A program made the translations under genes and the position numbers. A stretch of DNA of 64,000 nt from Patescibacteria group bacterium (GTDB lineage: Bacteria > Patescibacteriota > Minisyncoccia > UBA6257 > JAAZHW01), in contig JAOAGL010000001.1 in assembly GCA_026415775.1 (NCBI GenBank), forward strand, positions 111,057-175,056, in the 5' to 3' direction. Within the stretch, counting starts at the first letter, position 1. Each line of letters begins with the position of its first letter. Below are positions 1-61,043 of the stretch, one piece after another. The notes beneath the pieces were generated by a model. The model ran no database searches, had not been told where the DNA came from, and was given only the letters and a program-made list of their open reading frames with translations.

Positions 1-368
1 TAGATATTGAGCAACAAACAGCTAATAAAGGATTATTATCAGGTATTTCTTCTGCTTGTGCCGAATCGGGTCAATGCACCTTGGTTGATTTTATGGTTGT
101 TGTAAAAAATATCTTTCTTTTATTGCGACAAATCGCTTTTTGGGCAGCGGTTGGATTTGGAATTTATGGTGGTATTACATTGATAATTTCTCAAGGCAAC
201 CCTTCAAAAATTAAAAGTGGTAAAAATATTATTTTGGCAGCTTTTGTTGGATTAATGATTGTTTATGGCGTGAGCTTAATTATAAATATAATTCTTTTGG
301 CTATAAATAAGCAACCGATTAATTTGGAGCAAATTTGGAATCCTCAAATAATATTTGTAAATGAATAA
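1..368 (+). CDS. VirB2/TrbC-like type IV secretion pilin family protein (5' partial; frame is open to the window start)
   Basis: No stop upstream of the tool-listed Met at 81 in this frame back to nt 3, so the ORF enters from outside the window. Has a Cys-x4-Cys pair (SACAESGQC), then a hydrophobic hairpin with a G-NPSKIKSGKNIIL motif that is also found in the next three ORFs. Small size fits a pilin. Confidence 0.5.
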   Translation, partial: DIEQQTANKGLLSGISSACAESGQCTLVDFMVVVKNIFLLLRQIAFWAAVGFGIYGGITLIISQGNPSKIKSGKNIILAAFVGLMIVYGVSLIINIILLAINKQPINLEQIWNPQIIFVNE

Positions 369-945
369 AAATATGATTTTTTACAAATTATTGACCAAAT
401 TTTTTATTTTTTCTATATTGTTAATAGCAGTATTTTTAACAAATTATGCGTTTGCTCAAGAAGGACTTCCTGATCCTTTGGGAGGTAAAACTCTTTTAGG
501 ATTAGCTGAAACGATTGTTAAATGGCTAATGCAGATTGCTGTGCCGTTAACTGCGATTATGACAATCTGGGGTGCAATTTTGATGATGACAGCAATGGGC
601 AATCCTCAAAAAATTAAACAAGCCCAAGGCGCTTTAACTTGGGCGGTAGCTGGATTAGTGGTAATCATTATTTTGCAAGGTTTATTTGAGTTTGGGCAGA
701 CCACTATTTCTGAAGCAGAAGGATTATCCGATTTATTAAATACTATTCAGCAATATTTACTTTTTATTGGAGGCCCATTATCAATAGTTATATTTTTATA
801 CGGCTCCTATTTATTAGGAACTGCTAAACCCGAAAATGTTAAAACAGGAAAAAATATTTTAATTTGGACTTCGGTTGCTTTGGCAATTATTAGTATTTTT
901 ACCGTCGCCAATCTTATCAATATTATTAATCAATTGGCAAAATAA
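361..945 (+). CDS. VirB2/TrbC-like T4SS pilin paralog, internally duplicated (two pilin modules fused)
   Basis: Signal peptide (MNKNMIFYKLLTKFFIFSILLIAVFLTNYAFAQE). Two copies of the TM-hairpin plus motif: GNPQKIKQAQGALTWAVAGLVVIIIL and AKPENVKTGKNILIWTSVALAIISIF. Confidence 0.55.
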   Translation: MNKNMIFYKLLTKFFIFSILLIAVFLTNYAFAQEGLPDPLGGKTLLGLAETIVKWLMQIAVPLTAIMTIWGAILMMTAMGNPQKIKQAQGALTWAVAGLVVIIILQGLFEFGQTTISEAEGLSDLLNTIQQYLLFIGGPLSIVIFLYGSYLLGTAKPENVKTGKNILIWTSVALAIISIFTVANLINIINQLAK

Positions 946-947
946 AT

Positions 948-1298
948 ATGAAGAAAAAAATTGTATTACCATTTTTAATTATTGTTGGTTTAATGCCGAC
1001 AATTTTAATAATGGCCCAAACGAATGAGGCTTTACCCACAATTCAAGTGAAAAATGTAGATGATGTAATTAAAATAATTAACAATGTTGCTGCCTGGATG
1101 TATAGAATTATTTTGGCAATAGCCGGCATTTTTGTTTTAATGGCTGCTTTCACCTTCTTTTCAGCTGGCGAAAAAACAGAAAATGTGAAAAAAGCCAGAA
1201 ATCAAATTTATTATGCGGTAGTGGCTTTAGTGGTAGCTGTTTTAGCTTTTAGTATTAAAGAAATTGTGATTAAAATTTTAACAACGACAACAAAATAA
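948..1298 (+). CDS. VirB2/TrbC-like T4SS pilin paralog
   Basis: Signal peptide, then two TM helices separated by the GEKTENVKKARNQIYYAVVALVVAVLAFSI motif. The 116-aa length and topology are typical of VirB2/TrbC pilins. Confidence 0.55.
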   Translation: MKKKIVLPFLIIVGLMPTILIMAQTNEALPTIQVKNVDDVIKIINNVAAWMYRIILAIAGIFVLMAAFTFFSAGEKTENVKKARNQIYYAVVALVVAVLAFSIKEIVIKILTTTTK

Positions 1299-1345
1299 TA
1301 AAAAATAAAAGGTCGTTTAAATAAAATAATTAAAACAAATTTAAT

Positions 1346-1708
1346 ATGAAAAAAATAAAAGAAATTGGTTTGTGGGTTATAACATTGAGCTTAGTTTTAG
1401 GTCCAGCAGTTTCAGTTTTTGCTCAAACCGTAGCTACAGCCAATACGCCACAACCCAAGGACTTAGGTACTTGGTTGGGCGTCGTAAAAACCGTCTTTCG
1501 ATGGATTTATACTATTATTTTAGTTATATCAGTTGGTCTGGGTCTTTATGCCGCATTTTTATATCTTACTTCTGGAGGAGATGCTGGTAAAGTAAAACAA
1601 GCTAGTAAATATTTGATTTATGCTATTATTGGTTTAGTAGTAGCAGTATTAGCCTTTAGTATTACAAGTATTGTAGGCAGTTTAATTAACGAGCAGATGA
1701 ATGTTTAA
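1346..1708 (+). CDS. VirB2/TrbC-like T4SS pilin paralog
   Basis: Signal peptide ending AQT. Motif GGDAGKVKQASKYLIYAIIGLVVAVLAFSI is almost identical to the preceding paralog. 120 aa. Confidence 0.55.
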   Translation: MKKIKEIGLWVITLSLVLGPAVSVFAQTVATANTPQPKDLGTWLGVVKTVFRWIYTIILVISVGLGLYAAFLYLTSGGDAGKVKQASKYLIYAIIGLVVAVLAFSITSIVGSLINEQMNV

Positions 1709-1736
1709 TAAGAAGAAATATGTCAATTTTAAATCA

Positions 1737-1762
1737 AGGCCAGTTTTTAAAACTGGCCTTGA
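1737..1762 (+). terminator. Rho-independent terminator closing the pilin array
   Basis: Hairpin aggccagtttttaaaactggcct followed by a T-run (tgattttttt). Confidence 0.5.
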
Positions 1763-1894: not shown

Positions 1895-2821
1895 TTATTT
1901 TATTAAAATCAAATCCAAAATTTTTTCAAATGCTTTTTGGCTGGTAGCAACAATAAAATACTCATTGTAAAAACCATAATAAAATTCATTGCCGGTTGAA
2001 AATTTAATGTACTGAGCTTTTATTGGTCCGATTTCTTTGGGTAAAAATGGTTGGGTTGGACTTCCAATATTTTCCAGATATTGAGAGGTTAATAAATCAG
2101 GATTTTGTTCAATCATTTTTTCAAAAGCTAAACCAAATTTTGATTTTAAGTTTGACAAAGCAAAAACTGATAAGCCCGAGGCATTGATTTTACTAACATA
2201 AGCGATTGATTTTTTGCTTAATTCATCGGAATAAACAATAAATGAAAAGTTAGCAAAAAACTTCGGTTGTTCACTAGAAGCTATGCCTGAAAAATTATTA
2301 TAGAGCAAACGAAGAAATTCGTCGGTTGTAATAAAATCTCCCGTGGATTTTGTAAAAATAATTTCTTGGATATTTTGAGGACCAAGCAGATGCTTTTTAA
2401 TAAGAATCTTTTCAAAGTCATCCAAGGACAAATCCATTAATTCATAAACAGACTGACCGGAGAAATTTATTAATAGCGAAACGTATTGGGCTTTTGGAGT
2501 TGGTGTAATAGAGGTTTTAGGAGTCTGGGGTTTGTGAGACAGAAAATAAATTAGGCCGACAATTACTGCTAATCCCAAAATTGTTCCGCCAATAATAAAA
2601 AGTAAATTTTTTTTCTGAGGTTTAATTTCTTGATCAGCGGTATCAGTAGGGAAAAAAGTAATAACCTGTTCCTGATTAATTTTCTGGCTTATTTCTTCAA
2701 AATCTCTTCCAAGAATTTTTCCACTAACTAATCCTCCACCACTTTTGCGAAGGTCTTCAACATCAGTTTCAAGTGTGCGGATTTTAATTTGAGATGGTGG
2801 TTTTTTAAGAATTTCCGCCAT
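1895..2821 (-). CDS. hypothetical membrane-anchored protein
   Basis: 308-aa ORF with a single TM (LLFIIGGTILGLAVIVGLIYF) after an N-terminal cytoplasmic segment. No family recognised. Confidence 0.4.
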   Translation of the reverse strand: MAEILKKPPSQIKIRTLETDVEDLRKSGGGLVSGKILGRDFEEISQKINQEQVITFFPTDTADQEIKPQKKNLLFIIGGTILGLAVIVGLIYFLSHKPQTPKTSITPTPKAQYVSLLINFSGQSVYELMDLSLDDFEKILIKKHLLGPQNIQEIIFTKSTGDFITTDEFLRLLYNNFSGIASSEQPKFFANFSFIVYSDELSKKSIAYVSKINASGLSVFALSNLKSKFGLAFEKMIEQNPDLLTSQYLENIGSPTQPFLPKEIGPIKAQYIKFSTGNEFYYGFYNEYFIVATSQKAFEKILDLILIK

Positions 2822-6615: not shown

Positions 6616-6755
6616 TAGAAATTGCAAGTTCTTTTTTAAATTTAATACTTTTCTTTTAAAAATCAACCCCATTGCATATTAAAAGAAAAATTGAAAGAAA
6701 AAATTATGTAAGTTATAATATCCAAAATAGTCAATTTGCCCCTCCTATTCCCCTT

Positions 6756-8279
6756 ATGCGATTTACTATTAAAGATAAGCGAATAGTAATCAAGAGATTT
6801 TTTCTCACTAAAACCTCTTCTTCTTTCACCCTCATTGAACTTTTAATTGTTATCGCTATTTTAGCTGTGTTAATGTCTGTGATTGTTGTTAGCTTGAATC
6901 CCGCAGAAATGTTGAAAAGAACCAGAGATGTGAGACGCCAGGCAGATTTAAAAGCTATTAACTCAGCTTTATTAATTTATTCTGTTTCCAATCCTAATGG
7001 TTTTTTTGGTTCTTCCACCATTGTTTATATCTCCATCCCTTCTAACTATTCTAATTGTTCTGATTTGGGCTTACCGCCACTTCCCTCAGGTTGGTCTTAT
7101 CATTGTTCAAACGCTGATAATTACCGAAAAATTGATGGCAGCGGTTGGATTCCAGTTAACTTTAATTCTTTAGATGTTGGCGCTCCTATTTCTGCTTTGC
7201 CCATTGACCCCATTAATTCAACCACTTCAGGCAATTATTATACTTATGTTACCGGTGGTTCTTGGGAATTAACCGCTCTTTTTGAATCACAAAAATATCG
7301 CCAAGAAAGCGCTCCCGCTGATGGCGGAGATGTGGTGAATGGTTTTGAGGTCGGCAATAATTTAACCCTCACTCCCATTATCTTTCCTCACAACTGGATT
7401 AAAGTGCCGGGCAGTTCTCTTTACGGCACCAATGATTTCTGGGTGATGCAATTTGAAGCTAAATACTCTAAAACCGGTTCTGGCGCTGATGATGCTGGAG
7501 CTTGTTATTATACTTCTGGCTACGATACCTGGGATTGGGGCAAAACCGGAACCGACTGTCCGTCTTCTTGGTCAAACACTAATGTCGTTTCCTCTCCTTA
7601 TGGTTCGCCGATTGCCGGTGTTAGTCATAATGAAGCCAAAGCCATTTGTCAATCATTAGGCGGTCATCTGATAACTAATCAAGAATGGATGACCATTGTC
7701 AGAAATGCTGAGCAAGTGGAAGAGAATTGGTCAGGTGGTTCGGTTGGTTCTGGCTGTCTTTTTCGGGGTAATGTCGGTTCTAACGATGCCTGCGGCTATG
7801 ATGGCGCTAACCCGGAAAAGGGAATTAATCGCAATCCCAAAGCCAAATTAATTCTTTCCAATAATGAAGAAATCTGGGATATGGCGGGCAATGTTTGGGA
7901 ACATGTAATGAAAGATTTAAATGATACTCTGGTCAATAACCATCCTACCATTCTTTCCGACAACACCTGGAAGTGGTCAGAACATACAGCCAGCTGGACT
8001 AGTTATGGTGATCTTTCTTACAATGAAATCAGACCTTCCAATTCTTCTTGGAACGTCAATCAAGGAATGGGCAGGATTTATCATTATGATGGTTATTACA
8101 GCGGCCGTGTTCTGCTTCGCGGCGGGTATTGGGATGGTGGTGACAGTGCCGGGGCGTTGACGCTGTACTTGATATTGGGACGCGACGACTCAGAGCAGCC
8201 CTGTGGGGTTTCGCTGCGCCCGCTGATCCCCGTGAGATACCTCCGTATCTCACGGGGTGAAGGGGTTTTGGTAATTTAA
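6756..8279 (+). CDS. DGR target protein: N-terminal type IV pilin-like methylation motif fused to a C-terminal FGE-sulfatase/C-type-lectin-fold domain carrying the VR. The 3' end as annotated is probably frameshifted.
   Basis: SFTLIELLIVIAILAVLMSV is a prepilin-type N-terminal domain. HNEAKAICQSLGGHLITNQEWM...GNVWEHV matches the FGE/sulfatase-modifying-factor fold. The VR occupies the last codons. ATG at 6756 is the first in-frame Met (the tool's 6672 start is TTG). In the frame set by TR the protein would end ...WDATTQSSPVGFRCAR-TGA at 8226. Confidence 0.7.
   Translation: MRFTIKDKRIVIKRFFLTKTSSSFTLIELLIVIAILAVLMSVIVVSLNPAEMLKRTRDVRRQADLKAINSALLIYSVSNPNGFFGSSTIVYISIPSNYSNCSDLGLPPLPSGWSYHCSNADNYRKIDGSGWIPVNFNSLDVGAPISALPIDPINSTTSGNYYTYVTGGSWELTALFESQKYRQESAPADGGDVVNGFEVGNNLTLTPIIFPHNWIKVPGSSLYGTNDFWVMQFEAKYSKTGSGADDAGACYYTSGYDTWDWGKTGTDCPSSWSNTNVVSSPYGSPIAGVSHNEAKAICQSLGGHLITNQEWMTIVRNAEQVEENWSGGSVGSGCLFRGNVGSNDACGYDGANPEKGINRNPKAKLILSNNEEIWDMAGNVWEHVMKDLNDTLVNNHPTILSDNTWKWSEHTASWTSYGDLSYNEIRPSNSSWNVNQGMGRIYHYDGYYSGRVLLRGGYWDGGDSAGALTLYLILGRDDSEQPCGVSLRPLIPVRYLRISRGEGVLVI
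8100..8224 (+). repeat. DGR variable repeat (VR)
   Basis: Aligns to TR 8742-8865. It differs at TR positions a>t, aa>gg, a>g, t>g, a>t, a>ta (1-nt indel), a>g, a>g, a>g, aa>cc. The last 24 nt (gtggggtttcgctgcgcccgct) are identical and GC-rich, like an initiation-of-mutagenic-homing (IMH) element. Confidence 0.85.
8228..8257 (+). promoter_or_regulatory. Perfect 12-bp stem / 6-nt loop hairpin 4 nt downstream of VR (DGR homing-associated hairpin/cruciform)
   Basis: ccccgtgagata-cctccg-tatctcacgggg. The position immediately 3' of the VR/IMH mirrors the hairpin that enhances retrohoming in the Bordetella phage BPP-1 DGR. Confidence 0.6.
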
Positions 8280-8307
8280 TCTAAAATCTAAAATTTAAAA
8301 AACTTTC

Positions 8308-8667
8308 ATGTTAAACGATTTGATTGTTTTTCAAAAGACCTATGATTTTTACGTTTGGCAAAAAACTATTATTCTTCATCTAGCCAAAGTTCATAAATAT
8401 AGTTTGGGTATCCAATTAGAAAACGAAACATTAAATCTTTTAAAACAGATAGTCAAAGCAAATTTAAGCCGAACAGCCAAAAAAGAAGAAATAGAAAATT
8501 GTTTAGTATCTTTGGAAATTATTAAAGTTTTGATAAGGGTCGGCCACGAATTTAACAGAGAAGGCGGGATTAGTTTGAAAAATTATCAACTAGCATCAGA
8601 GAAACTTGCAGAAATCGGAAAATTGTTGGGTGGCTGGTTGAAAAATTTCAGCGGCCGGGCGCTTTAA
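8308..8667 (+). CDS. avd: Avd-like accessory variability determinant (four-helix-bundle protein family)
   Basis: 119 aa. LIVFQKTYDFYVWQK near the N-terminus and ISLKNYQLASEKLAEIGKLLGGWLKN at the C-terminus resemble the four-helix-bundle (23S rRNA intervening-sequence protein) family to which Avd belongs. Sits between the target and TR. Confidence 0.7.
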   Translation: MLNDLIVFQKTYDFYVWQKTIILHLAKVHKYSLGIQLENETLNLLKQIVKANLSRTAKKEEIENCLVSLEIIKVLIRVGHEFNREGGISLKNYQLASEKLAEIGKLLGGWLKNFSGRAL

Positions 8668-8741
8668 TGGCATTATAAGCCGTAGAGAATCCGGCCGCCC
8701 CGTTCTGTTTTTTACAGGACGGGCGGGGGATAAAATCAATA

Positions 8742-8865
8742 AGCGGCCGTGTTCTGCTTCGCGGCGGGAATTGGGATAATGGTGACAATGCCGGGGCGTT
8801 TACGCTGAACTTGAATTGGGACACGACGACTCAGAACAACAATGTGGGGTTTCGCTGCGCCCGCT
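8742..8865 (+). repeat. DGR template repeat (TR)
   Basis: Invariant donor copy of the VR. In the frame matching the VR it carries 8 AAY (Asn) codons (aat, aat, aat, aac, aat, aac, aac, aat) and encodes ...NNNVGFRCAR. Lies in the avd-RT intergenic region. Confidence 0.85.
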
Positions 8866-8989
8866 TCAGTGGTTATAATTTGCCAGAACTTTGCCTTTTC
8901 TTTGGAAAGGCGAAGGTGTGCTTTACAAAACCCCAGATTTTATTCCCTCCCGATATGATTTTATCATAGGGAAAATATTAGGCTTTTAC

Positions 8990-9037
8990 CCCGAGGCAGT
9001 GAAAGTAGTTAAATTATTACGAAATTTCTGCCTCGGG
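8990..9037 (+). other. 10-bp stem hairpin within the structured TR-RT spacer
   Basis: cccgaggcag...ctgcctcggg with a 28-nt loop. Additional small hairpins nearby: atgat-ttt-atcat and acgtc-ttgcgat-gacgt. DGR TR-spacer RNAs are known to be structured and needed for cDNA priming. Confidence 0.4.
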
Positions 9038-9080
9038 CCATTAAGCCCCCTTTTAATATAACGTCTTGCGATGACGTAAA

Positions 9081-9103
9081 TATAGATATAGATATAGATA
9101 TAT
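9081..9103 (+). repeat. hexanucleotide microsatellite (TATAGA/ATAGAT, about 3.5 units) abutting the RT start codon
   Basis: tatagatatagatatagatat directly precedes and overlaps the ATG at 9102. Confidence 0.6.
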
Positions 9104-10142
9104 GTTTGATAAAATCTGCTCTTTTCAAAATTTATACTCAGCTTATTTAAAAGCGCGAAAAGCCAAAAGATATCGGCCTTATATTTTAGAATTCAATTTT
9201 AATTTAGAAGAAAATTTACTGAATCTCCAAAAAGATTTATTAAACTTGACTTATCAGCCAGGACCATATCGTCAATTCACTGTTTGTGATTCTAAAAAGC
9301 GGCTCATTAAGGCGCCGGCGTTTCGTGACCGCATCATCCATCACGCTTTATGCAATGTCATTGAGCCGATTTTTGACCGAGGATTTATTTTCGACAGTTA
9401 TGCTTGCAGGAAAAATAAAGGCACCCATCGGGCAGTTAAAAGATTGGGGAATTTCATTAAATCATTAAAAACGCGTTTGGGGGAAAGTACGACCAGTGTC
9501 GAAACTTATTGCCTTAAATGCGATGTTTCCAAATATTTTGAAAATATAGACCATAATCTTTTGTTAGGTTTTATTGCAAAGAAAATTAAAGATAAGAGAG
9601 TTTTCTGGTTGATTAAACGAATTATTGAAAGCGATTCGCCGGGGATACCCATTGGCAATTTAACCAGCCAGCTTTTCGCCAATATTTATTTGAACGAATT
9701 AGACCAGTTCATAAAACATTATTTAAGAGAAAAGTATTATCTTCGCTATATGGACGATTTTTTAATTTTAGATATCAATAAAAAGCGATTGCATCAAATT
9801 AAGCGCCAAATTCAAAAATTTTTAAGAGATAAATTAAGATTAGAATTACACCCCAAAAAAGCCAATATTTTTCCGATAAATAAAGGAATTGATTTTTTGG
9901 GTTATAAAATATTTTTTAATTATCGTTTGCTGCGCAAAAATACCGTTAAACGTTTTATTAGAAGATTAAAAAAACATCAACAACAATTAAAAAATAATTT
10001 AATAAAAATTAATGATTTTAAAAAAACATTTTACTCTTGGTTGGTTTATGCTCAATTTGGAAAATCTTGGCGATTAATAAAAGATTTAAAGTTTAAAGAA
10101 AGACTTTGTTCAATACATAATGCCAGATATATATTATATTAG
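9102..10142 (+). CDS. DGR reverse transcriptase
   Basis: 346 aa. RT motifs include PGIPIGNLTSQLFANIYL (the DGR-RT-specific motif 4, as in Bordetella Brt IGNLTSQ) and the catalytic YMDD (RYMDDFLIL). Confidence 0.85.
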   Translation: MFDKICSFQNLYSAYLKARKAKRYRPYILEFNFNLEENLLNLQKDLLNLTYQPGPYRQFTVCDSKKRLIKAPAFRDRIIHHALCNVIEPIFDRGFIFDSYACRKNKGTHRAVKRLGNFIKSLKTRLGESTTSVETYCLKCDVSKYFENIDHNLLLGFIAKKIKDKRVFWLIKRIIESDSPGIPIGNLTSQLFANIYLNELDQFIKHYLREKYYLRYMDDFLILDINKKRLHQIKRQIQKFLRDKLRLELHPKKANIFPINKGIDFLGYKIFFNYRLLRKNTVKRFIRRLKKHQQQLKNNLIKINDFKKTFYSWLVYAQFGKSWRLIKDLKFKERLCSIHNARYILY

Positions 10143-28782: not shown

Positions 28783-29175
28783 CTTCAATAAGTAGGCAAC
28801 TGCTGTTAATGCTTTGAGATTTTTTCAATAATAAGCATTAACAGAGGAAAGTCCGAACACCCTGCTGTTTTCTTTTGAAGACAGTAGAAGCAGGAAGTTG
28901 CTAACAGCAACCGGTCACATTAACTGTGATTAGGGAAAGTGCCACAGAAACTATACCGGCCGTCTTTTAAGGCGACCAAGGGTGAAAAGAGTGGAGGTAA
29001 GAGCTCCCAACTCTAATTGGTGACAATTAGAGGTGGCAAACCCTTCCTGGTGCAAGATCAAGTTGTCGCGCAAGCGACAGGTAGATCGCTCTGAACTTGG
29101 TAGCAATACCAAGTCAAGATAAATAGTTGCCGCCCATTTTTAATGGGTACAGAATTCGGCTTATTCTTATTGAAG
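28783..29175 (+). ncRNA. rnpB: RNase P RNA (bacterial type A)
   Basis: P1 pairing cttcaataag/cttattgaag. Conserved AGAGGAAAGTCCGAACAC (P4), AGGGTGAAAAGAGTGGAGGTAAGAGCTCCC, and 3' ACAGAATTCGGCTTA. Confidence 0.85.
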
Positions 29176-29183
29176 AAACAAGA

Positions 29184-34597: not shown

Positions 34598-37500
34598 ATG
34601 TTTAAAAAAAGATTTTGGATTATTTTATTTTTACTAATTTTTCCTTTTAAATCATTTGCTTATGATAATTTAACTACTCATCCAGCCCTAACTTCAGAAA
34701 TTGTAAAATTTTATAATAATTTTTATACCCCAAAAATAAATGAAGAAGAAAGAAATTGGTTAATAAATGGAAGTACAAAAGAAGATGAACCCATTTCAAG
34801 AACATTAAATCATTTTTTTGACCCAGTTTACAATAGAGGTTTAAACAATGAAATTAATGCCGGCGCCTTAGCGCCATTTTTAAGAATTTTAAAGCCCTTT
34901 ATTCAAACCGCCAAAGAATGGGCGCAAAATTCTTATAAGCAAGCCATGTTTTTAGGAGAAGCTTACAAAAATGCCGCTTTAAATCCATATGCTCAATTAA
35001 CCAAAAGCGCAGTAGAAATTTTAAGTGTTCATACTTGGGAAAAGGCTATTTATAACTATATTATTGGTAATAAAAAACAAGCTTTTGAGGATTTAGGACA
35101 TGTTTTGCATCTATTGGAAGATATGGGTGTGCCAGCGCATACGCGGAATGATCATCATTTAAGAGGTGATGATTATGAAAAATATACTTCGCAATTTACA
35201 AAAGAAAATATTAATATTATCTCTCAATTAAAAGATAAAAAACCTTTAGTATTTAATAAGTTAAATGATTACTTTAATGATCTAGCTTCATATACTAATA
35301 GTCATTTTTATAGCCAAGATACTATTGGTATTCAAAGTGGTTATAATCAACCAGAATGGAATTATTTAGAAACAAAGAGTATAAACAATAAAATATATAG
35401 TTTCTCTGAAGACGAATTTGGTTTTTATTATCTATTAAGAAAAGATATAAATCAAGGAATTATTATCTCAACCCAGCCCACTTTAATTTTAGATGCACTA
35501 ATCCACGAATCCTACTGGTCTCATTTATCAAAAAAAATAGTTTTATCGGGCGCCGGCGTTTTAAGATTATTTTTTGAGGAAGTAGAAAAATATCGTGATG
35601 ATCAAGAATTTTTGAAAAAAATGCGAAAAACGTTATTTGCGATAATGATTGATAATTTTAAAAAGAATTTGGGTTTAATTAATGAGGATGAGCAAAATTT
35701 TAATCAAAATGAGAATCAGACAAAAGTAGGTTTATCAATAGAATCTGATTTATCGCCAACAACTCAAGAAATCTCACAACCCGTTATTTTATCATCACCA
35801 GTACCACAAAATCAGGAACAATTTCAAGAAATTGAGATTTTGCAAAATCAAATTACACCAAGCCCAATTATTACGCCAACCCCAATCGTTACTCCTTCGC
35901 CTACTTTTCCTCTTTCAATCACACCAACTCCTTTTTCTAATTCAGTAAGCCAAATAATTTCTGCAAATTCAACTATTATTGCTTCTTCAGAAACACCATC
36001 TCCATCACCTTCTTCATCTCCCTTCTTAACACCAACCATTACCCCCTCTCCTACTCCACCTTCAAAAATTTTAATTTCCGAAATTTTATATGATGCGGGT
36101 CATGGAGATGAGGGTAAAGAATTTATTGAATTATATAATCCCAATGATTTTGCGGTAGATTTGAGTGGGTGGTCACTGAGGATTATTAAAAATAATAGCA
36201 CAAGTTCAAATTCACTGGCTACTATTAAAACAACAGATAAAAATAATACTATTCCAGCCAGAGGTTTTTATTTAATTGGCTTAAACGATTATGACGCAAC
36301 AAATTATAATGGAGTAGTTGCTGATATTATTCGTTCTTATAGTTTGCCCGATGCATCAGATGATAACGTTTATACTATTTATTTAATTAAAGATAATGAA
36401 ATAATAGATTCAATTACTTATGATAAAAATATGGCTGTACCAAGCAAAAGCTTAGAAAGAAAAGCAAAAGAAAATTCTACGTCAGAATCAATGAGTATCG
36501 GGGAGGATAAATTTTTAGGTAATGGCTATGATAGTGATTCAATGGATGATTTTGTTATTCGTGATCCTCAACCACAAAATTCTTTAAATCTATCTGAACC
36601 ACGTTCAAAACCTACATCCCCAAAACCTATTGAGAATAAAAACAACATTGTTTTTTATGAGACTCAAACTAACAGTTTAATATTTCAATGGCTACCATCT
36701 TACGATGCAAAAAATTCATCAGAAGGAATTATTTACAGCATTTTTGTAAAAAAAGAAGACAATTTTTTGCTTTTAACTTCCACTTCTGCTTTAGAGTTTA
36801 TTTATCCTCTGAATAATGAAGAAGAAAAAACTTTTGATTTTAAAATGATAGCATATGACAGAGACCAATTGGCATCAGATCCAATTTATTTTAGCGCAAA
36901 TATAGAAGGATTAATTTTTGTGCAGGATGTTGATTCTGAACAATCTATGGCCAGTTGGTATTCTGATAATTGGTATCGTTTAGGACGAGGCTTTTCCGGC
37001 ATTCTTAAATCTTTAACTTTGAAAGGATATGTTAATGATAATGAGCCATATGAATCAATTATTACTTTGAAAGAATTTGAGGATGAAAATTATACTATTG
37101 AGTTGGCTTCATATTTAATTTTATCAGATGGAATATCTTTTGCTTCAACAGCAAAAGAAGTGAAAATTAATAATCTAAACATTCCCTTAAATCCTTATTC
37201 TTATTATCGTTTAGATGTTTACCAAAGTCGACAAAATCGAAGCGTGATTTTATTAGGCACAACAGCAACGGGCACTGCAATGTATAATGATCATGTATTT
37301 GGAGTAGGCAAAAAAGAATTTATTTATGTATTTTATCCTTTTATAAAAATGGAGGGAATTTTAGGATCAAAGGTTGACTTTTCTATACCCCAACCTCCAA
37401 CGATGCCGGAATTGAAATCTGTTAGCTTTGATAATCTAGCTGAAACTATTTATCTTGAATGGTCATCATCAACCGATCTTGATTCATTGGATTCAGAAAT

Positions 37501-38176
37501 TGTTTATGAGTATAATGTTAGTTTGAAAGATTCTGATTTTGATGAGACAAAATGGCGATCTGTTGGGAAAAATTTAAACGCAATTATTCCCGTGAAATTC
37601 CCTAATCAATATAAAATTGGCGTGAGAGCAGTAGATAATTTTGGGATGCATTCGGATGTAAGAATTCTTGAATGGCAATTTCCGTCAGATTTTGTCATTA
37701 TTCAAGAACAGCGCGAGATGGAAGATAAAGAATTTAACCCCAATCCTTATGTTTTAGCTCAGATTTTTGTAGCTAATCAATCGGGTTATGTAAAAGGTTT
37801 AAAATTATTTGCTCAACAATTTTTTGGTCAATCAACAGGAGATATGCAGGTGTTTTTGTATAATACTGATAATTATGAAAATATTTCAGAGAATAATTTG
37901 ATTGCATCATCTGATAAGATTGTATTATATGGCGGTCAGCAAGGAGGCGAGATAATAGTTAGGTTTAATCAGTCACCATTTTTAGAAAAGGATCATAAAT
38001 ATTTATGGGCAGTTTATTTTAATAAAGTAACTTCTAATTTTAAAGGAACATGTACTGATAATTTATCAGAAGGTTTTGCTTCGGCAAGATTCGGAAGCAA
38101 TAACTGGGTTGTAGGTGATTGCTATGTGGCTCCATTAGATTATTATTTTGTCTTAATTGGTTCAACAAATGAATAA
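34598..38176 (+). CDS. large secreted multidomain surface protein (Zn-dependent phospholipase C/S1-P1-nuclease-like N-domain, P/S/T-rich linker, lamin-tail domain, FN3-like repeats)
   Basis: Signal peptide. W..H...GHVLHLLEDMGVPAHTRNDHH (Zn-PLC-like His/Asp ligands). TPSPIITPTPIVTPSP linker. ILISEILYDAGHGDEGKEFIELYNPNDFAVDLSGWSL is a lamin-tail (LTD) signature. Confidence 0.5.
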   Translation: MFKKRFWIILFLLIFPFKSFAYDNLTTHPALTSEIVKFYNNFYTPKINEEERNWLINGSTKEDEPISRTLNHFFDPVYNRGLNNEINAGALAPFLRILKPFIQTAKEWAQNSYKQAMFLGEAYKNAALNPYAQLTKSAVEILSVHTWEKAIYNYIIGNKKQAFEDLGHVLHLLEDMGVPAHTRNDHHLRGDDYEKYTSQFTKENINIISQLKDKKPLVFNKLNDYFNDLASYTNSHFYSQDTIGIQSGYNQPEWNYLETKSINNKIYSFSEDEFGFYYLLRKDINQGIIISTQPTLILDALIHESYWSHLSKKIVLSGAGVLRLFFEEVEKYRDDQEFLKKMRKTLFAIMIDNFKKNLGLINEDEQNFNQNENQTKVGLSIESDLSPTTQEISQPVILSSPVPQNQEQFQEIEILQNQITPSPIITPTPIVTPSPTFPLSITPTPFSNSVSQIISANSTIIASSETPSPSPSSSPFLTPTITPSPTPPSKILISEILYDAGHGDEGKEFIELYNPNDFAVDLSGWSLRIIKNNSTSSNSLATIKTTDKNNTIPARGFYLIGLNDYDATNYNGVVADIIRSYSLPDASDDNVYTIYLIKDNEIIDSITYDKNMAVPSKSLERKAKENSTSESMSIGEDKFLGNGYDSDSMDDFVIRDPQPQNSLNLSEPRSKPTSPKPIENKNNIVFYETQTNSLIFQWLPSYDAKNSSEGIIYSIFVKKEDNFLLLTSTSALEFIYPLNNEEEKTFDFKMIAYDRDQLASDPIYFSANIEGLIFVQDVDSEQSMASWYSDNWYRLGRGFSGILKSLTLKGYVNDNEPYESIITLKEFEDENYTIELASYLILSDGISFASTAKEVKINNLNIPLNPYSYYRLDVYQSRQNRSVILLGTTATGTAMYNDHVFGVGKKEFIYVFYPFIKMEGILGSKVDFSIPQPPTMPELKSVSFDNLAETIYLEWSSSTDLDSLDSEIVYEYNVSLKDSDFDETKWRSVGKNLNAIIPVKFPNQYKIGVRAVDNFGMHSDVRILEWQFPSDFVIIQEQREMEDKEFNPNPYVLAQIFVANQSGYVKGLKLFAQQFFGQSTGDMQVFLYNTDNYENISENNLIASSDKIVLYGGQQGGEIIVRFNQSPFLEKDHKYLWAVYFNKVTSNFKGTCTDNLSEGFASARFGSNNWVVGDCYVAPLDYYFVLIGSTNE

Positions 38177-40183: not shown

Positions 40184-40256
40184 GGGCGCATAGCTCAGCG
40201 GTTAGAGCACAGACCTTATAAGTCTGGGGTCGATGGTTCGAATCCATCTGCGCCCA
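40184..40256 (+). tRNA. tRNA-Ile with UAU anticodon (AUA decoder)
   Basis: GGGCGCATAGCTCAGCGGTTAGAGCACAGACCTTATAAGTCTGGGGTCGATGGTTCGAATCCATCTGCGCCCA. Anticodon loop CTTATAA, so positions 34-36 read TAT. Confidence 0.7.
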
Positions 40257-40382
40257 CACTTTTTTTATTTTTTTATTGTTTTATAATCAATAAAAGAACC
40301 GCCTAAAACTTTGGCGGAAGACTCTTGCAAATTTTTAGTTTTTCTGGTATAATTAAAGTGTTGTCGATAAACAATAAAAAAT

Positions 40383-46738: not shown

Positions 46739-47085
46739 GGGGATGATCGGCCTCGAGACGGAAAAGCATTTTCGAGTCAGGCCGAGGAGCCGTTACCTCG
46801 TAAATCAACGGGAAACAAAAAACTGCCAATTTTAGCAGAAATTTGGCTTTTGCTTTAGCATAAGCCCATCCAATTAGCTGATGCTCGATAGGCTAAAAGG
46901 GTGTCAAATTATCGAGCTTGGCTCTTTCTAGGCGTCTTTGGCTAGAAGAGCAACCTAACTCCAAAGACAGGGACTAATAATTTTGCCGATTTTAGATATT
47001 AGTCCTTAAGAAAAATCGGCTGATTGTCTGGAAAGCTCGAAAATCAACTTTTTCGTCCACGCGGGTTCGATTCCCGCCATCTCCA
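46739..47085 (+). ncRNA. ssrA: tmRNA (SsrA)
   Basis: 5' GGGGATG pairs with 3' CATCTCC. T-arm GCGGGTTCGATTCCCGC. Internal tag reading frame GCC AAT TTT AGC AGA AAT TTG GCT TTT GCT TTA GCA TAA gives ANFSRNLAFALA. Confidence 0.85.
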
Positions 47086-47122
47086 CTAAATTATCCGGTC
47101 GGTCGATTTTTAAAATTCTAAG

Positions 47123-55193: not shown

Positions 55194-56741
55194 ATGAGCA
55201 AAAAAACATTTGCCATTATCACTTTAATTGCTATTTTACTCCTTAATTTAGAAGGGGTTATTGAGGTTAAAAAGGCCAATGCCCAAGTTTCCCTTCCTAC
55301 TGTTGAAAGATCTCTGCCCCCCATACAAGATATGGAACCAGTTATAGAATCAGCACCAGAAGTATACGATGCCGAAAATTGGGGCGAGGTGATGGTTTGT
55401 TCCACGGGGATTTACCAGAGGATTAGTAGTTGGATAAATACCGCATTATCAGTTGTTCTTAATCCAGTTTGTCAGATGTTGGGTCGCGCTTTTAGTTTTT
55501 TGGGGATTGGGGGTACAGCTGTTTCAGGAGAGTGTATTATAAATACTGGTGGCGCTGATACAACCCAGCAATGTAAAGAATGGGTAGCGAAAAAGAAAGC
55601 TTCTTTAAAGGCGAAAATGGCAGAAATGACAAAGTTGTTGTTAAGAATTACGGTTAAAACATTTATGGATCGTCTAGTTTCTAATGCTGTTGACTGGATT
55701 AGCGGTAGAACAACAGGAGATCCTCAGTTTGTTACCAATTGGAGACAATTTTTTAGTGATGTAGTTAATGAAGCATTTGGATTCTTCATTGAAAACTCCC
55801 CATTTTCTCAATTATGCGAACCATTTCGTTATACAGTGCGAGTTGGGACTACTTTGCCTGGTAAGCCACCATTCCCAACTTGTACTTTATCTAGAGTGGT
55901 AAGCAATATTGAATCTTTTTATGATAATTTTTCTAATGGCGGATGGTTGGCGTTTGAGGAATCGTTTTATCCTTGGAATAATGCTTTTGGGGCATACTTG
56001 ATGACCCAAGAATCTTTAAATGCGGAATTGACCGAGGCTCGCGAAGAAGCAGAGAAAAAGACACAAAGCGGATATAAGCCGACTGAGTGGTGTATTAAAA
56101 CCAAAAAAGATCCTGCTACTGGGCAAGAGATATGTGTAGAAAAAGTGGTAAGTATTCCTGGCGAAGCAAAATCCGATGTAACCTCAAAAGTTTTAACCAA
56201 TCAACTTGATAAAGCAGATACATATTTCTTAACCTCAGCTGATCTTAAAGGTTATGCTGAAATGATTGCCCAAGCCATAATGAGTCGTTTGATAAAATCA
56301 GCTAAAGAATTATTGATTGGTGGCAAATGGTATGGTAAGGGGTTATTGAATTTGCCGGAAAAGGGTGATTCAGGTCCATCTTTAAATTTGCGTTATGCGT
56401 GTAAAACATATGGAGGTTCAAAGGTTTGTGAGATTGATGCAGATGGGCCCTATTTTTCCAAGGAGAGTTGTGAAGCGGTTTGTAGTGGTTCATCAATACG
56501 ATTTAAATGCGACGCCCAATTACAAATTTGTGTAGCTGATCCAAACGGCAATTATAGTGATTATGATTCTTGTAATCGAGTTTGTTATCCTACAATAACT
56601 ACCCCTCCGCCATCAGAAAATCGTTATAGCTGTAATGAAACCGAAGGGCTTTGCGAATTAGACCCCAATGGTGATTTTACCAGCCTGACTAGTTGTCAAA
56701 AATATTGTGGTAGCGAACCACCTCCACCGCCGCAGTATTAA
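55194..56741 (+). CDS. secreted cysteine-rich protein with three tandem C-terminal Cys4 modules and a poly-Pro tail
   Basis: Signal peptide. C-terminal YACKTYGGSKVCEIDADGPYFSKESCEAVC, FKCDAQLQICVADPNGNYSDYDSCNRVC, YSCNETEGLCELDPNGDFTSLTSCQKYC. Ends EPPPPPQY. Confidence 0.5.
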   Translation: MSKKTFAIITLIAILLLNLEGVIEVKKANAQVSLPTVERSLPPIQDMEPVIESAPEVYDAENWGEVMVCSTGIYQRISSWINTALSVVLNPVCQMLGRAFSFLGIGGTAVSGECIINTGGADTTQQCKEWVAKKKASLKAKMAEMTKLLLRITVKTFMDRLVSNAVDWISGRTTGDPQFVTNWRQFFSDVVNEAFGFFIENSPFSQLCEPFRYTVRVGTTLPGKPPFPTCTLSRVVSNIESFYDNFSNGGWLAFEESFYPWNNAFGAYLMTQESLNAELTEAREEAEKKTQSGYKPTEWCIKTKKDPATGQEICVEKVVSIPGEAKSDVTSKVLTNQLDKADTYFLTSADLKGYAEMIAQAIMSRLIKSAKELLIGGKWYGKGLLNLPEKGDSGPSLNLRYACKTYGGSKVCEIDADGPYFSKESCEAVCSGSSIRFKCDAQLQICVADPNGNYSDYDSCNRVCYPTITTPPPSENRYSCNETEGLCELDPNGDFTSLTSCQKYCGSEPPPPPQY

Positions 56742-56754
56742 AATTTACTGAAAT

Positions 56755-58707
56755 ATGCTAAGAAAGATAAAAAATATACTTAAAAAAATTAAATTGAGAA
56801 AATTGTCTTTGACTCAAGGGGTGGTTTTGGGTTTGTTTATAAATTTTATAGCAGTTTTTAAAACCCATGCACAAACCTCCTATATTACTTCAAAAGTCAT
56901 TTATGGTATTTTTAGTTGGATTTCACATCTAATTGCTATTATTGCTTCTCAAATCATTATTTTAGAAGCAAAACTCTTGGCTTTAATTATTAATGCTTCC
57001 GTCTTTACAAAAATGCCCGTTGTTCAAACAGGATGGCGAATCGCGCGCGATTTCACCAACATCTTATTTATAATAATTTTAATTTACATTGCTTTTTCTT
57101 ATATTTTGAGAGTGCAATCAAGAGCAACAAAAGGTTTATTGGTCAAAATGATTATTATGGCTATTTTGATTAATTTTAGTTTGATGATTGGCGGAGTTAT
57201 TATAGATTTTTCAAATATGTTTTTCAGATATTTTATTTTCGGTTCTTTGGGCGGAGATTCGAGTGGTTTAAGTGGTGTCAGATTTACTAATGCACTAGCT
57301 GATGCTTTATCATTGCAAACATTTATGAAAAGTCAGTCTGTTCAAGAACCTACAGCTACCTCTACACCAGCAGAGTGGCAAACATGGGTAGAATCACAAA
57401 TGGCGGGTGCTCAAGAAAAAACTGCTTTGATGGGGATTGCAAAATTAATGTTTACCATTATCTTTAGCTTTTTAATGATTATAATTTTTGGCGCTCTCGT
57501 GGGTATTTTATTTGTTCGTCTTTTCTGGTTGTGGATTTTATTAATTTTTGCTCCTCTGGCGTGGGTGATATCGTTAATTTCAATTCCCGGCACGCCGGGC
57601 AATATTGCTAAGCAGTGGTGGGATAAATTTTTGCAGTGGTGTTTTGTAGCTCCAGTAATGGGATTTTTCATTTATTTAGCTTTAGAGACAGCGGGTCATG
57701 TTAAACAACTGACCATTCCTGATAGAATAGTAACTGGAATGAGTTCTGTAATGTATAACCTTCAAGAAATAATGCAAATGTTTTTAGTGGCTGGTTTTAT
57801 TGTTGCGGGGTTGATAGCAGGGGAGAAAATGGGAGCAAAAATTGCTGCTAAGGCGCATGGTATTGTAACCTCGGCTGGCAATAAAGTAAAAGGAGCTGTT
57901 AAAAATAAAGCTTCTTTATGGGCATTGCGAGCTGCTAATGCTCCGGCCACTGGTTTGGAAAAAGCCGCTAGTAAATCCGATGTAGCAAAAGCGCTAATCG
58001 GAATCACTGGATTGGGCATGGCTAGTCGTTATGTTTCCCGCAAAGCCGAGGAGGCTGAAAGTAAGGATTGGAATGAGAGAAAGAAGAAGTACGAATCTGT
58101 TGGCGTTGATCAATTAAAGAAAATGGCTAATTCAGCTTTGATGCCGGCCGAAAGAGCGGCAATGTTCTCGGTTTTAGCTCAAAAAGGAGGAATTGATGAT
58201 TCTAACAAAGATCAAGCTATATCATTGTTAAATAGGTATGATAAAGATTCTTATAAGAAAGTTTTAAGTGAACACCCTGAATGGCATCCTGCTGTTCAAA
58301 CAGCGGTCAAGAGTAATGATATACAACAAGTAAAAAATGTTATTAAATCAAATTCTGACATTGATATAAATAAATTTAATATTAGCAAAATTAAAGATGA
58401 AACTATTCTTTCAGCTGTTGTTGAGCTAAAGATTGATTTGGATCCAGAAAAAGCAGCATTAGAATTAAGAAATCTTGATTTAGATTTGTTAAATAAATTA
58501 ACCACGCATATTAAGGAAAGATTCAAAGGTTTAGATATTGAAAGCAAAAAAGAATTTGCCAAAAAGATGAAAAGTGGTTATACCGGTCGACAATGGTTTA
58601 ATGCAAATTTAAACGCTGATTTAGAAGCAGCATTAGAAGAAGAAGCATTAAAAGAACAAAAACAAAAAGAAGAAAAAGAAGAACCGAAAGTTAAATTGTA
58701 TAAATAA
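56755..58707 (+). CDS. polytopic membrane protein, possible VirB6/TrbL-like T4SS channel component
   Basis: At least 8 TM helices in the N-terminal two-thirds, then a hydrophilic K/E-rich C-terminal domain. Sits in a cluster with a VirB4 ATPase. Confidence 0.4.
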   Translation: MLRKIKNILKKIKLRKLSLTQGVVLGLFINFIAVFKTHAQTSYITSKVIYGIFSWISHLIAIIASQIIILEAKLLALIINASVFTKMPVVQTGWRIARDFTNILFIIILIYIAFSYILRVQSRATKGLLVKMIIMAILINFSLMIGGVIIDFSNMFFRYFIFGSLGGDSSGLSGVRFTNALADALSLQTFMKSQSVQEPTATSTPAEWQTWVESQMAGAQEKTALMGIAKLMFTIIFSFLMIIIFGALVGILFVRLFWLWILLIFAPLAWVISLISIPGTPGNIAKQWWDKFLQWCFVAPVMGFFIYLALETAGHVKQLTIPDRIVTGMSSVMYNLQEIMQMFLVAGFIVAGLIAGEKMGAKIAAKAHGIVTSAGNKVKGAVKNKASLWALRAANAPATGLEKAASKSDVAKALIGITGLGMASRYVSRKAEEAESKDWNERKKKYESVGVDQLKKMANSALMPAERAAMFSVLAQKGGIDDSNKDQAISLLNRYDKDSYKKVLSEHPEWHPAVQTAVKSNDIQQVKNVIKSNSDIDINKFNISKIKDETILSAVVELKIDLDPEKAALELRNLDLDLLNKLTTHIKERFKGLDIESKKEFAKKMKSGYTGRQWFNANLNADLEAALEEEALKEQKQKEEKEEPKVKLYK

Positions 58708-59931: not shown

Positions 59932-60336
59932 ATGCCGACAACACAAGTTCCACAATTTATTAATTTAGAAAGCAAAATTGTTGGGCCGTTAACCCTTCGT
60001 CAATTTTTATTTCTGGGGGGCGGAGGAGTTTTAATTTTTATTTTAAATTCTATTTTAACAACAGGTCTATGGATTTTAGTAAGCATTGTTATTGGTTTAA
60101 TTTCAATTGCTTTGGCTTTTGTGAAAATTAACGAGCAGCCGCTTCATAAAATCCTAATCAACGCTTTAAAATTTTATATTAATCCTCGTTTATATACTTG
60201 GAAAAAACCACAAGCAACAAAGCCATTATTAAAAGAAACAAAACCAATTGTTGCTAAAAAAGAAGAAAAAAAGCGATTAACCGTCGAAGAATTAGAAGCA
60301 ATAGCTAAACAATTAGAAGAAAAAAATAATCAATAA
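59932..60336 (+). CDS. PrgI/VirB3-like small membrane protein
   Basis: 134 aa. INLESKIVGPLTLRQFLFLGGGGVLIFIL then a second TM. Directly upstream of the VirB4-like ATPase cluster, as in Gram-positive PrgI-PrgJ arrangements. Confidence 0.5.
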   Translation: MPTTQVPQFINLESKIVGPLTLRQFLFLGGGGVLIFILNSILTTGLWILVSIVIGLISIALAFVKINEQPLHKILINALKFYINPRLYTWKKPQATKPLLKETKPIVAKKEEKKRLTVEELEAIAKQLEEKNNQ

Positions 60337-60338
60337 TT

Positions 60339-61043
60339 ATGATAGGAGGCGCTTCTACAGAAAAATTCATAGATATTGAGACAATCAAAGACGATTGCGT
60401 TATTTTAAAAGACGGCTCTTTAAGGGCGGTTTTAATGGTTTCTGGCATTAACTTTGATTTATTGTCGGAAACTGAACAAGAGATAGTGTTAAATGCTTAC
60501 CAGAATTTATTAAATTCTTTAGATTTTCCACTGCAAATTCTTGTTCATTCTCGAAAAATCAATCTTGATAATTATTTGCAAAAGATTAAAGAAATTGAAA
60601 AAAACGAGCAGAACGAACTTTTGAAATTGCAAATTCAAGAATACCGCAATTTTATCGATGAATTAATAAAAAGCACCAATATTATGACAAAAAGATTTTA
60701 TGTTGTTATTCCTTATTCGCCATCACTTATTTCCGCAAGTAGCTCGGCTAATCCATTAACGCAAATTTTTCAAAAATTACCTTTTGGCAAGCAAAAAGCA
60801 AATATTCAACAACAAGAAATTGATGCCGAAACACAATTTGTTAATAATAAAATGCAATTATATCATCGCGTCAGCGCTGTTATTTCTGCTTTGAAGCCAA
60901 TGGGTTTAAATGCCATCCGTCTTAAAACGCCGGAGTTAATTGAATTATATTACAACTTTTATAATCCCGAAAAACAAGAAAGGGTCGGTTTGGCTATTAC
61001 AGCCGAACTAGAACAATTAGAAGAAGAACCATTAATAGAGTAA
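60339..61043 (+). CDS. hypothetical protein in T4SS-like cluster
   Basis: 234 aa, no TM. Start overlaps the upstream stop closely, suggesting translational coupling. Confidence 0.35.
   Translation: MIGGASTEKFIDIETIKDDCVILKDGSLRAVLMVSGINFDLLSETEQEIVLNAYQNLLNSLDFPLQILVHSRKINLDNYLQKIKEIEKNEQNELLKLQIQEYRNFIDELIKSTNIMTKRFYVVIPYSPSLISASSSANPLTQIFQKLPFGKQKANIQQQEIDAETQFVNNKMQLYHRVSAVISALKPMGLNAIRLKTPELIELYYNFYNPEKQERVGLAITAELEQLEEEPLIE

Follow-up and report, generated by a model that had tools for sequence, protein, structure and literature searches.

VirB2-like pilin arrays in Patescibacteria

Patescibacteria are ultrasmall epibionts. The locus analyzed here is an array of four pilin genes (g1 to g4) at the beginning of a 64,000-nucleotide stretch of DNA, referred to as the window, from a Patescibacteria group bacterium (GenBank assembly GCA_026415775.1, contig JAOAGL010000001.1, positions 111,057 to 175,056 of the forward strand). 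These genes encode proteins related to the VirB2-like pilins of type IV secretion systems (T4SS), and the closest described systems are the VirB2 arrays of the same phylum. In the survey of Quinonero-Coronel et al. (2025, PMC12102498), PF18895, PF04956, and related profiles were run against 3,035 Patescibacteria genomes. VirB2-like pilins were found in 1,948 VirB4-containing assemblies, near virB4 in 1,135 of these, and in roughly 40% of assemblies pilins were not close to virB4. In total, 441 arrays of 2-11 genes with a mean identity of ~25% were described, an array being defined as 2-11 pilin genes that adjoin in tandem or have one non-pilin gene between them; VirB6 was hard to detect in some classes (PMC12102498). 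In Southlakia epibionticum ML1, the pilin series of the T4SS locus is essential (Wang et al. 2023, PMC10633639; PMC12857230), and a 2025 review singles out the Patescibacterial systems as the sole T4SSs of monoderms that have VirB2-like pilins, and speculates on a conduit formed by a pilus (PMC12857230).

Regarding this background, the array of the window belongs to a class that has already been described. It shares with the published arrays the PF18895 (T4SS_pilin) profile, the phylum, a number of genes within the range of 2-11, a comparable divergence (17-40% identity between modules), and a monoderm core like that of the mating-pair-formation type FATA (MPF-FATA; VirB4, PrgI, and TrsD) with no relaxase or coupling protein seen. 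However, it lies ~53 kb from the T4SS core and not inside it, it is part of a conserved block of gyrA, methyltransferase, solute-binding protein (SBP), and pilin genes, and one of its members is a two-module fusion, whereas PMC12102498 mentions neither multi-module pilins nor a linkage to an SBP. An earlier annotation made from the DNA letters (the original prediction) had called such arrays characteristic of Patescibacteria. This attribution stands, as the close relatives are Minisyncoccia and Paceibacterota metagenome-assembled genomes (MAGs) and pilin arrays are published for the phylum. The account that we consider rather probable is that g1 to g4 encode hairpin pilins exported by Sec and assembled by a distal T4SS of the monoderm type into a contact structure or conduit, with the paralogues in distinct structural roles.

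Compared with the classical pilins VirB2 (Agrobacterium T-pilus), TrbC (RP4), and TraA (F), the proteins of the array are likewise small, with a long signal peptide, two hydrophobic helices, a basic loop, a predicted topology with both termini outside (N-out/C-out), and a weak profile similarity (E 1.4e-4 for g2). Nevertheless, they remain below the PF04956 (TrbC/VirB2) cut-off, the host is a monoderm, there are no VirB5, VirB7, VirB9, or VirB10 partners, there is no evidence of cyclisation or acetylation, and no detectably related structure has been solved. In addition, the classical systems have one major pilin versus four or five paralogues here. The Mbov_0395 pilins of the integrative and conjugative elements (ICEs) of Mycoplasma resemble the array in their monoderm host and their hairpin module of ~80 residues, and the 234-aa VirB4 N-terminal-domain protein of the window best matches the VirB4 model of these elements; they belong to a mobile conjugative element, whereas the neighbours here are chromosomal housekeeping genes. 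Lastly, the Bartonella and Anaplasma arrays also carry several divergent VirB2 copies in tandem, but antigenic variation is their presumed function in animal pathogens, while the set studied here is ancient, orthologously conserved, and under purifying selection.

Array layout and family membership

Positions 1-1708 of the window hold four consecutive genes on the + strand with five copies of a VirB2-like pilin module. The features of the array are the following:

1 to 368, + strand: g1, pilin paralogue 1, an open reading frame (ORF) open from position 3 and 5'-partial in the window
361 to 945, + strand: g2, tandem two-module pilin of 194 aa (ORF; PF18895)
948 to 1298, + strand: g3, pilin paralogue of 116 aa, signal peptide and one hairpin (PF18895)
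1346 to 1708, + strand: g4, pilin paralogue of 120 aa, signal peptide and one hairpin (PF18895)
1731 to 1772, + strand: strong intrinsic terminator ending the operon, a 17-bp perfect inverted repeat (within 1731-1765) followed by a T run

The start of g2 lies over the stop of g1, with an overlap of 8 nt, and the gaps are 2 nt between g2 and g3 and 47 nt between g3 and g4. The 10 kb upstream of the window were read from JGI 3300038743 Ga0417229_000033 (242,645 bp), which carries the exact g2 protein. On this parent contig g1 is a complete gene of 149 aa, of which 28 codons, including the signal peptide, lie 5' of window position 1, and its ATG overlaps the stop of the gene for a 427-aa SBP_bac_1/SBP_bac_8 protein (L001 8276-9559). 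The four pilin genes form the distal portion of a conserved operon of the chromosome, with the order SBP, g1, g2, g3, g4, and terminator. Two custom hidden Markov models (HMMs), run on each of the 464 ORFs with 40 aa or more, revealed no additional pilin genes in the window.

Concerning the family, the curated gathering cut-offs are 26.6 bits for PF18895 and 27.9 bits for PF04956. Against PF18895, g2 scored 60.1 bits in two stretches, g3 35.7 bits, and g4 34.2 bits. The g1 product is sub-threshold, the domain is present in its orthologues of L003 and L005, and g1 was found at E 2.8e-9 by a custom HMM made from g4 homologues. PF04956 was passed by related proteins of other genomes (e.g., P0154 with 33.7 bits and P0169 with 55.3 bits), and several g4 homologues carry both domains. 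Furthermore, g2-g4 matched NF045849 (Mbov_0395 family pilin-like proteins of Mycoplasma ICEs) at E 2e-7 to 4e-5 (E 4.2e-7 for g3) with 23-30 bits, which is below its cut-off of 40. A protein 99% identical to g4 is present in an NCBI Patescibacteria MAG. The local alignment scores of the five modules are 2.8 to 16.2 standard deviations above composition-preserving shuffles.

By these profile matches, the array belongs to the T4SS_pilin family (PF18895). The original prediction of four consecutive paralogous small ORFs, of VirB2/TrbC-like T4SS pilin identity and with a first gene continuing beyond the window start, was borne out by these results. The two profiles that it had proposed as a check gave different outcomes, since g2, g3, and g4 are above the PF18895 cut-off while PF04956 produced sub-threshold matches only.

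Topology and motif of the modules

Hydropathy profiles showed a signal peptide and two hydrophobic helices in g3 and g4, a signal peptide and four helices in g2, and two helices (one hairpin) in the within-window part of g1. The secondary structure of the AlphaFold models of g2 and g4 agrees with this layout, in line with the signal peptide plus transmembrane hairpin that had been proposed for the array. In g2, the signal peptide is followed by hairpin 1 (~aa 45-118), an acidic linker, and hairpin 2 (~aa 122-193), whereas the single helical hairpin of g1 comes after a signal peptide and an N-terminal extension that contains a conserved CxxxGxC pair. This pair is retained in the N-terminal extension of g1 orthologues, and the other paralogues lack it. 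The g4 model has a predicted local distance difference test (pLDDT) score of 74 and forms a hairpin of helices 40-75 and 80-119.

The loops of the modules read GNPSKIK, GNPQKIK, KPENVK, EKTENVK, and GDAGKVK, with 2-3 Lys in each loop of g2. The near-identical motif claimed for all the paralogues is found between g3 and g4 (ALVVAVLAFSI and GLVVAVLAFSI) but not across the five modules, which have in common a G-x-x-x-K-[IV]-K loop, the general helix pattern, and 3 invariant columns. Besides, this loop and helix motif is a signature of the whole family and not peculiar to the array. The predicted signal-peptidase sites of the four proteins are all A↓Q (VFA↓Q, AFA↓Q, IMA↓Q, and VFA↓Q), so that each mature pilin would begin with Gln.

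The fused pilin and multi-module proteins

The halves of g2 tested alone both exceed the PF18895 cut-off (44.8 bits for the N half and 34.1 bits for the C half). All 13 homologues found in the databases (54-95% identity, 175-201 aa) have both modules and the conserved junction, and the internal-duplication fusion that had been predicted for this gene is confirmed by the halves and by the two-module form kept in relatives. The possibility of an assembly or frameshift artefact was rejected because these independent homologues keep the length and both modules. A polyprotein cut between the modules by signal peptidase was also rejected, as the linker appears to hold no conserved AxA site: the alignment shows Ala at -1 in most homologues, but -3 is mostly Glu.

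When 1.84 billion representative proteins were searched with a query profile, 7,935 clusters of the family were obtained (E <= 1e-3). Two or more matched stretches are present in about 50 of the 150 best clusters, in a ranking that favours multi-module proteins, the query profile being itself two-module. Pfam confirms proteins with 3, 4, 6, 7, and 8 PF18895 modules. The g2 fusion is real and selected, yet it is a recurrent architecture of the family and not a peculiarity of g2. Single polypeptides with 3 to 8 tandem modules were seen in P0158 (820 aa), P0152 (606 aa), P0170 (552 aa), P0173, P0162, and P0169. A different combination is present in a distant relative (L012 6401-7528), where a gene located directly after an SBP gene encodes a 375-aa protein in which a PF18895 module is joined to a VirB1-type lytic transglycosylase (SLT) domain.

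Age and selection of the paralogues

The modules are 21-40% identical in local alignments, the closest pairs being g3 and g4 (40% over 103 aa) and the two modules of g2 (37% over 60 aa). When the modules of four genomes were placed in a neighbour-joining tree, they fell into five clean orthologue clades, and a one-to-one orthologue of every module is present, in the same order, in relatives down to ~55% identity. The ratios of non-synonymous to synonymous substitution (dN/dS) against the relative with 86% identity are 0.076 for g2, 0.149 for g3, 0.151 for g4, and 0.180 for g1, compared with 0.04-0.08 for the gyrA, methyltransferase, and SBP genes; these values are approximate, because dS is ~1 between L001 and L007. 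Identity across six genomes is 53-65% in the helices and loops, with the exception of the g1 loop (38%), and drops to 10-42% in the extension after the signal peptide, the C-tail, and the g2 linker. Such variable termini and linker next to conserved helices are expected if the termini are exposed.

These data bear on the antigenic diversification suggested in the original prediction, a possibility that has also been raised for Patescibacteria arrays (PMC12102498). The array would then be a cassette of interchangeable surface subunits, whose alternate expression or recombination would vary the antigen or switch the host range, as has been proposed for the VirB2 paralogues of Bartonella and Anaplasma. 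The high divergence of the paralogues and the variability of the predicted exposed termini could be explained in this way, as could two cases of minor turnover at the g4 position in relatives: a recent second g4 copy in a Paceibacterota genome (L009 8956-9715, 92/117 residues identical), and a g4 split into a signal peptide (36-aa ORF) and a mature part (76-aa ORF) in L003 7037-7399, an arrangement that suggests a frameshift, a pseudogene, or a sequencing error. However, the orthologues kept one to one and in order and the dN/dS values of 0.08-0.18 speak against a cassette of this type. Within positions 1-1800 there are no DNA repeats >25 nt between the pilin genes that could drive recombination, and the genes overlap or abut without internal terminators, which implies co-expression and not switching. 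For this reason, we consider a variation cassette very unlikely. A recent tandem amplification or gene conversion was likewise rejected, given the lack of such repeats and the orthologue clades. An ancient set with stable orthologues under purifying selection argues instead for distinct structural roles, and the results fit five ancient paralogues acting as fixed, specialised subunits.

The T4SS core

A co-directional T4SS cluster is located at 54.4-63.4 kb of the same window, ~53-61 kb downstream of the array, preceded by KsgA as reported for Paceibacteria. Its genes are:

within 54.4-63.4 kb: 272-aa signal-anchored protein
55194-56741: 515-aa secreted protein with 20 Cys and a Pro-rich C-terminus, no family match
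56755 to 58707, + strand: 650-aa polytopic membrane protein with ~7 hydrophobic segments (hydropathy) and a long hydrophilic tail
within 54.4-63.4 kb: 391-aa acidic protein
59932 to 60336, + strand: PrgI family protein, VirB3-like (PF12666, 43.9 bits vs cut-off 27)
60339 to 61043, + strand: 234-aa protein like TrsD and the VirB4 N-terminal domain (NF041427 TrsD, E 1.9e-11)
61048 to 62850, + strand: VirB4-like T4SS ATPase of 600 aa (PF19044 P-loop_TraG, 96.9 bits; PF12846 AAA_10, 51 bits)
within 54.4-63.4 kb: 163-aa membrane protein

The ATPase carries the Walker A motif AKSGSGKS (from the translation) and the Walker B motif ILIVDE. The 234-aa protein also matched VirB4_plasma (E 1.4e-13), both this and the TrsD match being below their curated cut-offs. 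With VirB4 and PrgI above the cut-off and the TrsD-like protein below it, the cluster has the components of an MPF-FATA-like T4SS. No VirB6/PrgH homologue was recognisable, and the 650-aa protein has no Pfam or NCBIfam match; its position and architecture make it a VirB6/PrgH-like candidate.

It had been proposed to look for VirB4, VirB6, or VirD4 upstream of the first nucleotide of the window. There are no T4SS genes in the 10 kb upstream, which hold RecG, an S1 protein, GyrA, the methyltransferase, and the SBP, and the core is instead far downstream. On an unrelated contig (L016 1-6876), a five-gene PF18895 array is divergently adjacent to a T4SS core formed by a 785-aa polytopic protein without a Pfam match on record (in the same position as the 650-aa protein), PrgI, a TraC-like protein, and VirB4. 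This adjacency ties the pilin family to the T4SS machinery by gene neighbourhood. The L016 array is of the type linked to the T4SS, and that of the window is of the type linked to the SBP.

Synteny and the solute-binding protein gene

The order gyrA, methyltransferase, SBP, g1, g2, g3, g4 is maintained on contigs whose g2 proteins are 56-86% identical. The g2 protein was found in two GTDB genomes, a Minisyncoccia (86% identical) and a Paceibacterota (L009, 59% identical), and the ORFs read in the latter follow the same order. A mobile-element origin was rejected on the basis of housekeeping neighbours (gyrA, tRNAs, ligA, ftsK, leuS, ftsH, RNase P RNA, and tmRNA) and the similar GC content of the array (31%) and the window (34%). 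The RNase P RNA (class A, 199 bits) at 28784-29178 and the tmRNA (130 bits) at 46739-47088 confirm that these are ordinary chromosomal surroundings.

The SBP is a membrane-anchored sugar-binding protein of the CUT1 type, and the PDB entries that it matches best are family 1 binders of sugars, maltose, and oligosaccharides (E down to 4e-20). In the loci retrieved with this protein (35-48% identity), a PF18895 gene is immediately downstream in 5/5, one of them (L015) with different upstream neighbours. The SBP also precedes the pilins in most of the loci retrieved with the pilins (L003, L005, L007, L009, L010, and L017); in L010 (Magasanikbacteria) it is 27% identical and is followed by at least 9 pilin-like genes. 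Taken by locus, the linkage was recorded in L001, L003, L005, L007, L009-L015, and L017. This sample is small and partly non-independent, and the linkage is treated as a lead. It is possibly unreported: solute- or substrate-binding proteins are not mentioned in PMC12102498, and a full-text literature search for the combination was empty.

This linkage could also mean that there is no pilus, and that the hairpins remain membrane-resident and make up, together with the SBP, a device for scavenging or uptake, whether or not the T4SS takes part. It could be, for example, an oligomeric pore or a docking platform that takes host sugars or oligosaccharides captured by the SBP. The overlap or abutment of the SBP gene with the first pilin gene, the repeated gene order described above, and the CUT1 type of the protein are in favour of this explanation. 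Moreover, no ABC permease or ATPase partner was seen next to the SBP (10 kb upstream), and Patescibacteria must import most of their building blocks (PMC11665869). Nevertheless, there is no precedent for two-helix hairpins as SBP-dependent transporters, other homologous arrays adjoin VirB4 and PrgI with no SBP in view (L016), and profiles link the family to conjugative pilins. Gene packing is tight in these small genomes, so adjacency alone is a weak argument, and the ABC partners may lie elsewhere, as the part of the 242-kb contig in view is the 64 kb of the window and 10 kb upstream. Considering both sides, an uptake device is the main rival of the pilus account but unlikely.

The SBP might, on the other hand, be a dedicated accessory of a Patescibacterial T4SS pilus or conduit, acting as a glycan-recognising adhesin or receptor, or as a saccharide loader, with the pilins of 2 to 8 modules as covalently pre-assembled building blocks. 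At present we hold this to be quite unlikely.

Proposed assembly of the pilins

In the account that we prefer, each pilin protein would be exported by Sec and cleaved by signal peptidase I at the A↓Q site. The mature protein would be seated in the membrane as a helical hairpin, probably with both ends outside and the Lys-rich loop inside. Since both termini would be on the same side, hairpins could be joined head to tail without changing the topology, and g2 would be a covalent pilin dimer of two hairpins in this arrangement. The monoderm-type T4SS located 53-61 kb away (VirB6-like protein, PrgI/VirB3, TrsD-like protein, and VirB4) would draw on this membrane pool to polymerise a short pilus or conduit for contact or exchange with a host cell. 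The five modules are most likely non-interchangeable and placed in distinct positions, as major, minor, base, or tip subunits.

Several points weigh against this account. Concerning the family, g1 is below the PF18895 cut-off (21.8 bits full length and 23.1 bits for the partial sequence), and in PF04956 g2 reached 22.4 bits (E 1.4e-4) and g3 12.8 bits, both below the cut-off, with g1 and g4 unlisted. Comparisons with solved pilin structures were of little help. The g2 model, built from a 14-sequence alignment, is of low confidence (pLDDT 53, predicted template modelling score 0.31) and too poor for a fold search, so only its secondary structure was used. A Foldseek search of the g4 model, confined to the PDB, gave only generic helical hairpins (e.g., chemoreceptors and FadA), none at E <= 0.001, the two-helix hairpin being a non-discriminating fold. 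HMM searches of all PDB sequences with the g2 and g4 family profiles gave nothing significant and no solved pilin. As for the genome, the array is tied to the SBP gene and not adjacent to the T4SS core, and neither a coupling protein nor a relaxase was found among the large ORFs of the window, the small ones having been scanned in part. The approximate nature of the dN/dS values has to be added to these points. Finally, a pilus of this type has been seen in no Patescibacterium (PMC12857230, PMC11665869), and the role of the T4SS in these bacteria has been called 'completely unknown' (PMC11665869).

Other features of the window

Downstream of the array there is a tRNA-Leu gene on the opposite strand, followed by a 308-aa ORF at 1895-2821 (- strand) with one predicted membrane helix and without a Pfam match. 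This ORF is kept in synteny directly 3' of the pilin array and the tRNA-Leu in L009 (318 aa) and L011 (315 aa). The window also contains a complete diversity-generating retroelement (DGR) at 6672-10142, with these parts:

6672 to 8279: DGR target gene of 535 aa, type-IV-pilin-like (N_methyl) at the N-terminus and FGE-sulfatase/C-type-lectin at the C-terminus
8100-8224: variable repeat
8308 to 8667: bAvd accessory gene
8742-8865: template repeat, 90-92% identical to the variable repeat, with differences at template adenines
9102 to 10142: reverse transcriptase gene

A 1192-aa protein at 34598-38176 has a Lamin Tail Domain as its sole match. A tRNA-Ile with the anticodon TAT (UAU) is encoded at 40184-40257. 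Reading AUA with a UAU tRNA-Ile is uncommon in bacteria, where a lysidine-modified CAU tRNA is usual.

Implications for Patescibacterial T4SS

The array is real and conserved and looks expressed; its basic classification remains unchanged and is already in the literature. The T4SS with its pilin series is essential in the one species tested, and the locus of the window represents a well-resolved example from the Paceibacteria side, which adds head-to-tail fused pilins as a recurrent and conserved architecture. Regarding the SBP, its linkage to the pilins would, if confirmed, offer a handle on what such pili bind or carry. If an SBP-T4SS unit were real, the essential Patescibacterial T4SS would have a concrete role in host recognition or nutrient capture.

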